Source: a virus (lineage: Duplodnaviria; Caudoviricetes). From it: DNA of 58,955 nucleotides. Positions 10,622 to 14,234 of this stretch are shown piece by piece (positions within the stretch are counted from its first letter, which is position 1; the number at the start of each line of letters is the position of its first letter). The notes below the pieces were generated by a model that did not search any database, was not told the origin of the DNA, and saw only the letters and a program-made list of their open reading frames with translations. The stretch lies in IMG/VR virus record IMGVR_UViG_3300043776_000546, positions 1 to 58,955 of that record. One strand, 5' to 3'. The translations under genes and the position numbers were made by a program.

Positions 10622-11512
10622 GTGAACGATGAACTCCGGTGGATAGCGACAGATCAGCTTGTTGACCCGCCCGTGGTTCTCCGCTTGGTGAATCGCGGGT
10701 CGCTCGCCTACGTGGAACTGCGGGACTCGATTGCCGACCGTGGCATCCTGAACCCGATCCTGGTTCGGCCGTCCGCCCGCTTTCCCGGGAAGTACGACGT
10801 GGCGGATGGCCTTTACCGCGTCACGGGCTCCCGTGAAGTCGGCCTGCCGACGATGCCGTGCCTGGTGAAGGACTTGACGGACGACGACCTGCTGGCGATC
10901 CAGATTCAGGCGAACGCCCTGCGGCCAGAAACGACGCCGATCGAGTATGCCCGTCAGATCAAGCGGATCATGGAGGCCCGTCCCGAGGCCACCTTGGCGG
11001 AGATCAGCACCCGCATCCTCCACAAGAGCCCCGGCTGGGTCAGCGAGACCTTGGGGCTGCTGGCCTTGAGGAAGGAGTATCAGACGGCGGTGGATCGCGG
11101 CGAGATGCCGTTGGGGTCCGCCTATGAGTTGGCACGGGTGCCCTACAAACACCAGGCGCAGTTCTTCGACCTGGCGCGGACGATGCCGGTCGGCGAGTTC
11201 CGGGCCGCCGTCCAAGCGTTCCTGAAGCAGTTCCAAGAGGCCGTGCGGCAAGGAAAGCTGGACGCCTTCTTCACGGAAGACTTCACACCACAGCCCTACA
11301 TGCGGCCCCTGAAGGAGATCCAACCGGAGCATGAGCGGCCAACCGTCTCGGCCCTCGTCATGGCCGCCGAGAACTGCAAGACACTGCTGGACGCCTGGCG
11401 GGCGGCGCTGGCCTGGGTGATGCACCTGGATCGCGCGAGCGTTGAGAACCAACGCCAGGTTGTGATGAACCGCAACCGCAAGCGAAAGGAGCCTTCCGAC
11501 AAGCAAATCTGA
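10622..11512 (+). CDS. ParB/Srx-like N-terminal domain protein with HTH
   Basis: ELRDSIADRGILNPILVRP, DGLYR, IQANALR, then an HTH-like segment. GTG start is inferred. Confidence 0.8.
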   Translation: MNDELRWIATDQLVDPPVVLRLVNRGSLAYVELRDSIADRGILNPILVRPSARFPGKYDVADGLYRVTGSREVGLPTMPCLVKDLTDDDLLAIQIQANALRPETTPIEYARQIKRIMEARPEATLAEISTRILHKSPGWVSETLGLLALRKEYQTAVDRGEMPLGSAYELARVPYKHQAQFFDLARTMPVGEFRAAVQAFLKQFQEAVRQGKLDAFFTEDFTPQPYMRPLKEIQPEHERPTVSALVMAAENCKTLLDAWRAALAWVMHLDRASVENQRQVVMNRNRKRKEPSDKQI

Positions 11513-11566
11513 TCCCCTGACTGTCTTGTTTCTCTGTTGCTATTCACCTGTTTCGAGGCCACATCA

Positions 11567-12325
11567 ATGTCAGCACATGAGCACACGAACACGGACACCT
11601 CTCTGGTCCCCGTGAACCTGGACCAACTCCCTTCCACGCAGATTGGCAGCGACGATCAGTTCGCCGATCTCGCCAAGAGCGCCGACTACATCGGCCGCCT
11701 GCAACTGTTCACCAAGGGCAAGGCGGTCAACCGGAACCTCGTGCGGCCGGGCAACTACGGCATTCCCGAGTCCGACGAGGAAGTGATCGACATGGGCGAC
11801 TGTATCGACATCATCCCGCTGGCCCGCCGGCCGAAGGCCATCGACATGACCGACAGCGAGGCGATCATCGTCAACTACGCCCCGGATTCGGCGGAGTTCA
11901 AGCGGATCGCCGAGCAGTCGTTGGAGAAGGAAAGCCACTGCATGTACGGCCCGTCGTTCCTCGTCTTCGAGAAGGGCACCTGCCGCTTCCTGGAGTTCTT
12001 CTGCGGCAACAAGTCGAGCCGCAGCGAGGCCAAGAAGCTCTACCCCTACCTGCCCCTGTCGCAGGCCGACATCGACGCCAAGGCGGCGAAAGGCGACGAC
12101 GTGGGCGACCTGACGCCACACGGTCCGCTGCCGCTCACGCTCAAGAGCCGGCTGGTGGAGAAGGGCACGTACTCGTGGCACGTCCCGGTCGTCGTGAAGT
12201 GCGGCACGGTGTTCCCGAAGCTGCCGCCGATGGACCGCATCGTGAAGGAGATCAACGCCTTCTTGACCGTGAAGGACAACGGAGTGGAACGCGCTGCCCC
12301 GGCACCGACCGGCCGCGCCCGCTAA
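11567..12325 (+). CDS. Phage replication-region protein, possibly ssDNA-binding
   Basis: Strong GC3 codon bias and position in the replication module. SSB function is a guess. Confidence 0.6.
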   Translation: MSAHEHTNTDTSLVPVNLDQLPSTQIGSDDQFADLAKSADYIGRLQLFTKGKAVNRNLVRPGNYGIPESDEEVIDMGDCIDIIPLARRPKAIDMTDSEAIIVNYAPDSAEFKRIAEQSLEKESHCMYGPSFLVFEKGTCRFLEFFCGNKSSRSEAKKLYPYLPLSQADIDAKAAKGDDVGDLTPHGPLPLTLKSRLVEKGTYSWHVPVVVKCGTVFPKLPPMDRIVKEINAFLTVKDNGVERAAPAPTGRAR

Positions 12326-12344
12326 CACACCCGCTGCACCGCTC

Positions 12345-12500
12345 CCGCAAGACGCCGGCCGACAGCGCATCGGCAACCAGCGCTCGGTGACGTGCATCAT
12401 GGGCGGGTATCTGTTCCCCGCCGGACCTGCCGCAAGGCCCCGGCGGGGTTGTTGAATCACCACCTCGTCTTGCGGTGGGAATCTCCCACCGCAAGGCGAG
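12345..12500 (+). ncRNA. Candidate structured leader with alternative pairings
   Basis: CGTCTTGCGG (12466-12475) can pair with 12345-12354 or form the 17-bp hairpin 12464-12500. Confidence 0.45.
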
Positions 12501-12519
12501 CACTTCTTGCGTGGTCGCC

Positions 12520-13044
12520 ATGAATCCTGAATGCCTCTTGATAACGATGCCCGCCGTGGACTTCCGCACTTTCACTGGCGTCTGCCAGCAAGTGCTGGGG
12601 TACTCGCCGCTGCGCGCAGCAGACGCCTCACCACGCGAATTGTCCGAGGCCGAGAAGTTTCTGAGTTGCCTGGCGGCATTGCGGGACAAGAAGGCTCCGG
12701 CCGGGTTCGCGGCGAATCTCTTGTCACACGCAGCATTCAGCGTGTTCCTGGTCGCGGACGACCGTGATCTGCTCGACATCCTGGAACGCTGTTCCGGGAT
12801 GTCGTTTGTTACGGCGGACACGACGGTGCGTGGCGTGACGGCAGCGGTCGTGAGCGGCACCTTGGCTCAATGGCGTGATGCCGTGGCCGCGGGGTCTACG
12901 CGCACTGTGGAGCCGGCCGTTCGTTTCGGCTTCAACAAGCTCTACGGCATCTTCTGCGGCGCGGGCCTCGACGTGTGGAGTGATTACCGCACCCGCGAGG
13001 CCCCCGACAAGACTCTTCTCTTGGAATACAAGCCACAACGATGA
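12520..13044 (+). CDS. Degenerate ThyX-like protein
   Basis: LLSHAAFSVFL and VVSGTLAQWRD echo ThyX segments; the RHRx7S signature is absent. Confidence 0.45.
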   Translation: MNPECLLITMPAVDFRTFTGVCQQVLGYSPLRAADASPRELSEAEKFLSCLAALRDKKAPAGFAANLLSHAAFSVFLVADDRDLLDILERCSGMSFVTADTTVRGVTAAVVSGTLAQWRDAVAAGSTRTVEPAVRFGFNKLYGIFCGAGLDVWSDYRTREAPDKTLLLEYKPQR

Positions 13045-14234
13045 ATCCCTACTACCAGCGTGACAACATCACTCTCTACTGCGGCGACAACCGCGAGATC
13101 GTGCCGACGTTGCCCGAGGCGTCGATGGACTTCATTTGCACCGATCCGCCCTACGGGCTGGGCTTCATGGGCCATGAATGGGACCACGGTGTCCCTGGCC
13201 CACTGTTCTGGGAGAACTTCCTTCGGGTGTGCAAGCCGGGCGCGATGATGTTGGCTTTCGGCGGCACCCGCACGTATCACCGGCTCGTCTGCGCGATCGA
13301 AGACGCGGGGTGGGAGGTTCGTGACTGTCTCATGTGGCTCCAAGGCCAGGGCTTTCCCAAGGCCCCGGACGTGGGCCTGATGATCGACAAGGCGAAGGGA
13401 GCCAAGCGGGAGGTGGTCGGTACGAAGGTCGGCCAGCCTGGCTATTCGTTGGCCGATAACGGCCGCACGAACGAGGTCTACGGCGATCTCCATAACCCGG
13501 CGGCCGAGTGTGCGATCACGGCCCCGGCCACCGATCTGGCGAAGTTGTGGACCGGTTGGGCCAATTCGCTGAAGCCCGCCTGGGAGCCTATCACGCTGGC
13601 GATGAAGTGCCTGGACGGCACGCTGGCCCACAACGCCGAGCAGTGGGGCGTGGCCGGGCTGAACATCAATGCCAGCCGGATCGGGACGGACAGCACGATC
13701 CGCACCCATAGTCCGGCGTCCAATTCGGACGGCGGCTGGGTCAGTGTCAACCGGCCTCCTGTGGGCGGCTCCGAATGCGGGCGCTGGCCGGCAAACCTGC
13801 TCCTGGACGAAGGGGCGGCGGCCCTGCTGGACCGACAAACCGGCACGCTCAAGAGCGGCATGATGAAGGCCGGGCAGCAGCGCTCGGATGGCAAGGACGG
13901 CGGCTATCACCGCGGCTTTCCGCCTACGGCCACGGCTGCGGGCACCTACGGAGACTCGGGCGGGGCCAGCCGGTTCTTCTACACGGCGAAGGCCAACAAG
14001 AAGGAGCGCAACCCGCCGGGGATGAAGAATGACCACCCCACGGTCAAGCCCCTCGCGCTGATGGAATATCTCCTGACGCTGCTGTCTACGCCTACGGGCG
14101 GGATGGTGCTGGACCCGTTTGCCGGCAGCGGCTCGACGCTGCTCGCCGCCAAACGGCTCGGACGGCCCTGCATTGGCATCGAGCTAAGCGGGCACAACTG
14201 CGAAATCGCTGCTGCCCGGTTGGAAGCACTCTAA
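13041..14234 (+). CDS. DNA methyltransferase, N6/N4 beta class
   Basis: DPPY, HPTVKP and DPFAGSGST motifs. Confidence 0.92.
   Translation: MNPYYQRDNITLYCGDNREIVPTLPEASMDFICTDPPYGLGFMGHEWDHGVPGPLFWENFLRVCKPGAMMLAFGGTRTYHRLVCAIEDAGWEVRDCLMWLQGQGFPKAPDVGLMIDKAKGAKREVVGTKVGQPGYSLADNGRTNEVYGDLHNPAAECAITAPATDLAKLWTGWANSLKPAWEPITLAMKCLDGTLAHNAEQWGVAGLNINASRIGTDSTIRTHSPASNSDGGWVSVNRPPVGGSECGRWPANLLLDEGAAALLDRQTGTLKSGMMKAGQQRSDGKDGGYHRGFPPTATAAGTYGDSGGASRFFYTAKANKKERNPPGMKNDHPTVKPLALMEYLLTLLSTPTGGMVLDPFAGSGSTLLAAKRLGRPCIGIELSGHNCEIAAARLEAL

Follow-up and report, generated by a model that had tools for sequence, protein, structure and literature searches.

A conserved, covarying RNA motif, here termed M, lies in the spacer between two genes of a prophage-derived sequence (IMG/VR provirus record IMGVR_UViG_3300043776_000546), and our analysis suggests that it may be an orphan relative of the antitoxin RNAs that accompany AbiF-type toxins, acting as a decoy against AbiF. 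In the window (the whole stretch of DNA analysed, 58,955 bases, about 62% G+C), M occupies 12323..12409 on the + strand. It falls in a 194-nucleotide (nt) spacer, 12326-12519, which separates p262 and p174, two + strand genes of a replication/modification module. We put the probability of the reading as a whole, including the decoy role, at roughly 50%. A first-pass annotation, made from the sequence alone, had described this spacer as a riboswitch-like leader with mutually exclusive pairings upstream of a ThyX-like gene, p174. The leader does hold a conserved structured RNA, M, with covariation well above controls, but the proposed switch with a downstream hairpin is not supported; the spacer is made up of three RNA modules (M, a stem-loop T1 and a hairpin H) rather than one riboswitch.

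The M family comprises RNAs of about 55 nt that fold into a conserved irregular hairpin. It consists of stem P1 (7 pairs), a 6-nt bulge on the 3' side (AUCAWG), stem P2 (GCAC/GUGC), an invariant 4x4 internal loop (CGCU/UGAC) and a variable P3 with 4 to 39 loop nucleotides, often closed by a GNRA (GCAA, GCGA, GAAA) or UUCG loop. In the window, P1 joins 12329-35 to 12402-08, P2 joins 12336-39 to 12392-95, the bulge is at 12396-12401, and the base of P3, preceded by the 4x4 internal loop, joins 12343-46 to 12386-90. The P3 loop is extended here by a lineage-specific insertion of 39 nt (12347..12385, + strand), which holds a GCCGA/TCGGC hairpin (12358-74) and is found only in the window and locus L090 among 31 distinct copies.

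The fold was strengthened by covariation across 51 distinct M copies (51 of 71 distinct strings; the 20 omitted, which repeated a core or differed only in the flank, were picked by eye). In these copies 99.4% of cells pair, compared with 93.1% in shuffles (0 of 500 reach the observed value), and pairing drops to 26-39% of cells when the partner strand is slid. Compensatory changes are found at P1 pairs 12-85 (CG 26, GC 15, UA 9, GU 1) and 11-86 (CG 41, UA 9, GC 1) and at P2 pair 18-73 (AU 44, GC 7). Unguided RNAalifold recovers P1, P2 and P3, with all six standard pair types at P3 pair 27-65, and an alternative P2 (CACC/GGUG) fits nearly as well, mostly via G-U pairs. Because the G-U pairs of M (e.g., UG 10 at 15-82) fit the + strand only, M is read as an RNA on the gene strand.

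The covariance model R1 gives a single match in the window, at 12323-12409, with 67.9 bits (E 1e-15), compared with 69-78 bits for the host loci. Rfam holds no family for M, in agreement with the first-pass statement that the leader matches no known class; RF03085 (abiF motif) is unmatched on the window at E up to 10 and, with the limit at E 5, on four bacterial M loci. At the gathering score the window matches only a tRNA in Rfam, and for the spacer, searched at E up to 10, the best match is a minus-strand one to Acido-1, which at 14.8 bits falls below the cut-off of 50 and was put down to chance. M is a covarying RNA structure that is unregistered in Rfam. Two other explanations of its conserved letters were rejected: the CATCAT word as a -10 box, given that there is no conserved -35 and that P3 tolerates insertions of 4 to 39 nt, and a small open reading frame (ORF) from the ATG at 12399 within M, as this ATG reads AAG in many copies.

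The association of M with AbiF comes from bacteria. Among bacterial genomes, a 19-nt degenerate pattern returned 120 loci, of which 116 were chance matches and four were genuine M copies, all in Planctomycetota metagenome-assembled genomes (MAGs; one Sedimentisphaerales, one Phycisphaerae and two Fimbriiglobus), while a longer pattern returned 60 metagenomic loci, 52 of which carry M. An Abi_2 gene lies 3' of M on the same strand in all four genome loci and in nine of the 52 metagenomic loci. It starts 69-114 nt past M in the nine (tblastn), and the four genome loci have an ORF within about 100 nt past M; a Pfam scan of two of these four ORFs matched both to PF07751, at E 6e-58 and 2e-51. All 13 Abi_2-linked loci share one layout, in which a sigma-70-like -35/-10 promoter stops some 7 nt short of the AACACAC with which M begins, P1 gives way directly to a U-run, and the Abi_2 gene follows. 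At two of these loci the neighbours are housekeeping genes (AccA, ClpP) rather than phage genes. In one Fimbriiglobus MAG, a tRNA gene (L240:1261-1332) lies about 170 nt 5' of the M-Abi_2 cassette, as at many integration hot spots. The Abi_2 protein of locus L237 (ORF L237:1561-2493) has a single PDB match, chain 8vz6_A, at E 3.4e-46 over residues 16-309, nearly its whole length. Bacterial M holds the place of an AbiF partner RNA before full-length AbiF homologues, and it very probably belongs to an RNA family that partners these Abi_2 genes.

The published systems give this position its meaning. In the C. difficile phi027 prophage, the AbiF toxin is reported to be neutralised by an upstream noncoding RNA (ncRNA), RCd22, in the order promoter, ncRNA, terminator, abiF; RCd22 is said to work both in cis, where termination is premature and "riboswitch-like", and in trans, where it binds the AbiF protein (PMC12373285). 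Structure 8VZ6 (Zilberzwige-Tal et al. 2025) is described as a PbAbiF dimer with two copies of its ncRNA (AbiFr), whose bulge nucleotides block the HEPN site, and AbiF as belonging to the type III toxin-antitoxin systems and as the ancestor of Cas13 (PMC12737573, PMC13064643). AbiF is further reported to process its own ncRNA (PMC12737573). Upstream RNAs of this kind are published as neutralising the HEPN RNase, which they bind, and as reducing read-through into the toxin gene. AbiD, AbiD1 and AbiF are each said to pair a protein with an upstream RNA, and in AbiD1, which belongs to the same protein group, translation is reportedly activated by a phage protein that binds its mRNA (PMC13064643, citing Bidnenko 2009). 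Two RNA-based means of escape by phages are also described: the pseudo-ToxI of Pectobacterium phage TE, an RNA mimic of a type III antitoxin that is credited with blocking abortive infection (PMC3475682), and an AbiF-inhibiting hairpin that lactococcal phage sk1 has in its cos site (PMC13064643, citing Rince 2000 and Zilberzwige-Tal 2025).

Like RCd22 and the RF03085 motif (PMC12373285), M in bacteria lies directly 5' of the Abi_2/AbiF gene on the same strand, a layout seen in 13 of 13 loci. In contrast to the two 33-35-nt motifs reported there, M is a single irregular hairpin of about 55 nt that RF03085 does not match, so that it would be a separate RNA class in the same position. Its invariant 6-nt bulge and 4x4 loop recall the single-stranded bulge nucleotides through which AbiFr is reported to inhibit its toxin, a likeness by description. 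As with pseudo-ToxI, the phage copy of M resembles a host type III antitoxin RNA and lacks the toxin; pseudo-ToxI, however, acts on ToxN, from another toxin family, and is reported to have expanded its repeats in escape mutants (PMC3475682), whereas M is conserved and present singly in many records of wild phages, where its effect is a proposed one. The sk1 hairpin is likewise phage-encoded and counters AbiF, a role that M may share. It is said not to resemble the AbiF ncRNA (PMC13064643), whereas M has all its invariant positions in common with the host-linked RNA. A literature search, to which the primary AbiF/Cas13 paper and its supplements were external, returned no statement of this RNA class or of its phage copies, and either may already be described there.

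In viral records, the 19-nt pattern gave 43 loci, comprising 34 that pass a stricter filter, three divergent copies and six unrelated matches. Viral and metagenomic copies of M always share the orientation of the genes on either side, and they were found in at least three contexts: between p262 and p174, between genes for a membrane-anchored protein of about 157 amino acids (aa) and a thioredoxin-like lipoprotein, and with a tail-region gene pair. Two contigs have a p262/p174 spacer without M and carry M instead in the membrane-protein/thioredoxin spacer; because contigs that lack M in the first spacer carry it in the second, M appears as one movable unit per genome, and R1 finds exactly one M in each of six records (the window and five long related records). 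No Abi_2 match was found in any of six records, namely, the window and five long M-bearing viral records (three of these five at least 90% complete, and three of the six incomplete). Host-linked and phage-borne copies have 24 invariant columns in common, and both P2 variants, GCAC/GUGC and GCGC/GCGC, occur in the two sets alike. Close likeness to a host-linked RNA and the lack of a toxin gene are two of the marks of a pseudo-ToxI-type mimic, and the phage copy has both in the records searched.

On the reading of M as an orphan antitoxin-like RNA, the three modules of the spacer would be transcribed with the flanking phage genes, and M would arise as the 3' portion of the p262 transcript, with T1 as its boundary. 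By analogy with the published systems, M would bind and neutralise its AbiF. In an infected cell, it would keep the host AbiF toxin bound when the host antitoxin RNA runs out, an antitoxin-mimic counter-defence comparable with pseudo-ToxI of phage TE. T1 and H would serve as structural hairpins for 3'-end formation or protection and not as ligand-switch partners of M, possibly with partial termination before the p174, methylase and helicase genes, and the p174 leader would have in H a structural hairpin of its own.

Several observations weigh against this reading. In contrast to RCd22-AbiF (PMC12373285) and to the bacterial copies, the window M has no toxin (Abi_2) gene, no promoter and no U-run, and the 39-nt P3 insertion could impair binding. 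M would not be counted as an AbiF RNA by RF03085, and the link to AbiF is one of position and partner protein, not of homology to characterised AbiF RNAs. Genomes seldom contain M-Abi_2 pairs: the pattern hit four of 401 Planctomycetota genomes (the reversed control hit three), and only the hit in the centre genome, 1 of 401, is M. R1 likewise found M only in the centre genome among 151 Planctomycetota genomes, a weak test in which 37 candidates per genome were scored. Relatives of p262 were found in none of 81 genomes of the order of G003 (a Fimbriiglobus MAG), and the p174 profile matched none of 151 Planctomycetota, 201 Acidobacteriota and five other genomes; because neither search had a positive control, they say nothing about the host. 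Many loci come from overlapping or related assemblies, and their counts are not independent. The RNA sequencing runs speak neither for nor against expression of M: run X20 gave contigs only of relatives (the 3' part of p262, and T1 followed by a tRNA-like sequence), none of which covers M, and two other runs gave nothing.

The structural basis of the proposed switch was examined in the same stretch, and every pairing of the first-pass annotation was confirmed. The segment CCGCAAGACG (12345-12354) has its perfect complement CGTCTTGCGG at 12466-12475, which allows a 10-base-pair (bp) long-range helix. GCCGA (12358-62) and TCGGC (12370-74) as well as GGTGA (12386-90) and TCACC (12457-61) are present as described, and CCCCGCCGG (12416-24) pairs with CCGGCGGGG (12440-48) around an inner GCC/GGC stem and a GCAA loop. 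The alternative hairpin (12464-12500) closes a 3-nt loop with 17 pairs, one of them G-U, and ends 19 nt 5' of the ATG at 12520. The 200-nt stretch is also more stable than expected (-94.7 versus -79.9 +/- 4.5 kcal/mol, better than 200 of 200 dinucleotide shuffles, z -3.3). Its centroid structure retains only the 12416-48 stem-loop and the 12464-12500 hairpin, and the 10-bp long-range helix is absent from both the minimum free energy (MFE) and the centroid structures.

Comparison with relatives gave no support for the exclusive pairings as a conserved device. The 12345-12354 segment overlaps the start of the P3 insertion, is missing from 29 of the 31 distinct M copies, and pairs inside the P3 extension in the window's own M fold. 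In L090, the only other copy with the insertion, its counterpart has a 1-nt deletion with no compensating change and six contiguous pairs remaining, and the hairpin is still perfect. The duplex between 12340-12392 and the 5' arm of the hairpin reaches an energy (-22.0) that 8.2% of 1000 shuffles also reach. Across 12 loci, cognate duplexes between the M P3 and the hairpin arm average -16.06 kcal/mol, no better than non-cognate ones (-15.71, standard deviation 3.97); the window ranks first for its cognate duplex and all others third to ninth, while the H-like hairpins' own stems measure -18 to -38 kcal/mol. Homologues keep the hairpin without compensatory support for the 12345-12354 pairing, an outcome that the first-pass annotation had itself named as counting against the switch. 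The single closed domain it had drawn also came apart, as its components occur alone or in another order in relatives. A second candidate contact, between the GCUCCC of M and a GGGAGC word in the H loop of four related loci, was rejected: it has no cognate advantage, and the word persists in L015/L016, where M is degenerate.

The long-range pairing is built on the 7-mer CCGCAAG, which occurs 43 times across the whole window where 14.6 matches are expected (0 of 100 shuffles reach 43). Four copies lie between 12345 and 12495 (12345, 12430, 12469(-) and 12489), one of them inverted. In the window the word is mostly on the + strand (32 of 43) and often resembles a C-GCAA-G hairpin loop. Like transcription-terminating riboswitches and attenuators, M is a conserved aptamer-like fold 5' of hairpins and genes, and its bacterial copies end in a stem and a U-run; unlike them, it has no conserved alternative pairing, no consistent class of downstream genes and no Rfam match. 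Rather than the one functional class of regulated genes expected of a riboswitch, at least four downstream gene types follow M. M is no fixed companion of the ThyX-like gene, so nothing supports a ligand from among the folates, flavins or nucleotides.

T1 (12416..12448, + strand) is a GC-rich stem-loop with a 9-bp outer stem, the inner GCC/GGC stem and GCAA loop, and a tail, UUGUUGAAU, that runs to 12457; it is kept in both the MFE and the centroid structures. The p262 protein search gave 66 related viral loci, whose 330 nt past the stop codon comprise 55 distinct sequences including the window. Thirteen further distinct versions of T1 were found among relatives, 6-8 nt past the p262 stop (48 nt in L032) and with compensatory stems, and T1 looks like a 3' hairpin or terminator of the p262 unit. 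H (12464..12500, + strand) is a 17-bp covarying hairpin followed by CACUUCUU. Because a hairpin of 10-18 pairs is kept at this position before p174 in 12 of 12 M-bearing p262/p174-context loci despite differing stem sequences, H is a conserved structure, and it is retained in L015/L016, whose M is degenerate. T1 and H both lack the U-run of an intrinsic terminator, no terminator passes the scan in 12326-12519, and a sigma-70 promoter scan found none inside the same interval. Several relatives have the order T1, a block matching window 12326-12409, an H-like hairpin and the ATG, and in the window and L077/L247 M sits between the p262 stop codon and T1. A contig of a co-occurring relative in DNA run X6 has 40 other letters in place of window 12294-12415, with T1 directly past the stop; because this contig joins the stop to T1 without M, M is a presence/absence difference between close relatives.

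Other structured elements occupy the same slot in further relatives. A different element of about 90-105 nt lies some 15 nt before the p174 ATG in L025:3814-3921, L022:3823-3919, L027:3787-3894 and 10 more loci; its ends join in an 8-bp stem, UCCGCUUG/CAAGCGGA, where 2 of 13 sequences show one compensatory pair, and the members tested have no Rfam match. ARAGORN calls tRNA genes (Arg-CCG, Cys, Thr) in the slot at L040:2299-2370, L043:3775-3847, L032:3825-3912 and L021:3860-3933. Further tRNA or tRNA-like loci lie 3' of the p262 stop in L019, L024, L044, L047, L048, L058 and L061, and several loci in the slot resemble tRNAs in their acceptor and T-arm sequences but contain long inserts and go uncalled by ARAGORN. 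A DUF3800-IX RNA (RF02968; L073:414-477, 55.5 bits, above the gathering score) was identified about 100 nt 3' of the M of L073 in the same spacer. In the membrane-protein/thioredoxin context (L250, L253, L260 and others), a second hairpin 60-100 nt past M has GGCUCCCG in the 5' arm; this word, identical to M's invariant GCUCCC, lies just ahead of a GGAG ribosome-binding site.

The main rival to an orphan antitoxin-like RNA is a cis-acting attenuator in which M, T1 and H together set passage from p262 into the p174-methyltransferase-SNF2 genes, with termination at T1 or H and M sensing a factor, likelier a protein than a metabolite. The bacterial copies are themselves leaders, with P1 and then a U-run before a gene, RCd22 is reported to act partly in this way (PMC12373285), phage M lies on the strand of its flanking genes with a strong hairpin about 10-20 nt on (T1, H or another in the thioredoxin context), and window 12345-54 can pair either inside the P3 extension or with the 5' arm of H. 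Nevertheless, we consider such an attenuator unlikely, since the alternative pairing is not conserved, T1 and H have no U-runs, the downstream genes vary by context, H is kept beside degenerate M, and T1 normally stands 5' of M, not 3'. One copy per genome that changes places fits a trans-acting RNA better than a gene-specific leader. The next rival makes M the binding site of a phage-encoded RNA-binding regulator, an antiterminator or a translational one, which bacteria would have copied as a sensor to activate Abi_2. M is far commoner in viral records (34 of 43 pattern loci) than in genomes (4 of 120), antitermination sites likewise stand ahead of a terminator, and the reported activation of AbiD1 by a phage protein is a precedent (PMC13064643). 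This explanation is improbable, as no candidate regulator gene was found travelling with M, its flanking genes vary by context, the partner protein is a full-length AbiF homologue, and for AbiF proper the published role of the upstream RNA, in a complex that has been solved, is that of an antitoxin (PMC12737573, PMC13064643).

Small self-cleaving ribozymes have invariant unpaired nucleotides, occur in varied contexts and are frequent in phages, all of which holds for M, and M might be an RNA processing element of this kind or an RNase target; alternatively, all three hairpins might be mere terminators or stabilisers without a partner. Processing of its own ncRNA is indeed reported for AbiF (PMC12737573). 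Both versions are distinctly improbable: a search to E 10 gave M no match among the Rfam ribozyme families, a free ribozyme would not be expected to turn up repeatedly before Abi_2 with a promoter and U-run of its own, as M does at 13 loci, and a plain terminator has no need of invariant internal loops. An element acting as DNA, whether a recombination, replication or packaging site or a protein operator of CCGCAAG words, could be imagined from the position of the spacer in a replication module, with ParB, primase-helicase and methylase genes nearby, and from the four CCGCAAG copies in 151 nt, one of them inverted. It is scarcely credible for M, whose P1 and P3 contain G-U pairs that just one of the strands can form, whose stems vary in length under GNRA/UUCG caps and whose orientation is always that of the genes; CCGCAAG, moreover, is over-represented throughout the window and not just in the spacer.

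The genes around the spacer are those of a phage. The upstream gene p262 (11537..12325, + strand) encodes 262 aa of unknown function, with no match in Pfam or PHROG, and M's first bases lie within its TAA stop codon (12323-25). A protein-atlas feature search placed p262 with viral clusters in which 14-32% of members carry PF23977 (Pam3_Gp34), a lead only. The downstream gene p174 (12520..13044, + strand) encodes 174 aa from the ATG at 12520, in frame with an ORF listed from the GTG at 12475. Its stop codon overlaps the start (ATGA) of an N6/N4 DNA methyltransferase gene (13041-14234), an overlap suggestive of a coupled nucleotide or DNA-modification function. Farther 5' of p262 lie genes for a ParB-like protein and a DUF5906 primase-helicase, an SNF2-type helicase gene lies 3' of the methyltransferase gene, and phage genes are also found at the window ends (integrase, DNA polymerase A, ligase). 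The sole consensus terminator-like site in 11400-13200 is at 12774-12804, inside the p174 coding region, with a 14-pair stem and a T-rich tail. A blastn search of 12200-12700 against phage and plasmid collections gave no match.

The description of p174 as ThyX-like was borne out for the fold and not for the Thy1 sequence family. An AlphaFold2 model from 29 sequences (predicted local distance difference test, pLDDT, 90.7; predicted template modeling score, pTM, 0.80) gave 23 PDB matches in Foldseek at E<=0.001, and all 27 rows listed, to E 1.1e-2, are ThyX/FDTS entries, the best being 3fnn (E 7e-7, template modeling (TM) score 0.56, about 12% identity). By sequence, p174 matches nothing in Pfam (E<=0.01), PHROGs or a PDB sequence profile search. 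Of the positions of the ThyX motif RHRxxS it keeps only His70 and Ser74, and it is shorter (174 aa) than the matched ThyX chains (180-245 aa). The predicted structure makes p174 ThyX-like at the level of fold only.

For annotation, the lesson of this spacer is that a convincing terminator/antiterminator pair in GC-rich phage DNA can stem from an abundant 7-mer and need not be a switch. For phage biology, the interest lies in AbiF-type toxins with RNA antitoxins, a recently characterised defence and a proposed ancestor of Cas13, from which natural phage escape is barely known; the precedents for RNA-based escape are one laboratory-selected mimic (ToxIN) and one cos-site hairpin (AbiF). We tentatively propose that wild phages of uncultivated bacteria may commonly carry a single, selectively maintained AbiF antitoxin RNA, detached from its toxin and moving between intergenic slots, which would disarm AbiF as a natural decoy, with M, which differs from the Rfam abiF motif, as a second structural class among the partner RNAs of AbiF. 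If true, M would be a new class of partner RNA for Abi_2 proteins, helping to work out how HEPN RNases recognise RNA, and a marker for AbiF-exposed phages in metagenomes. Its natural phage-borne copies would also provide a set for direct tests of RNA-based counter-defence.

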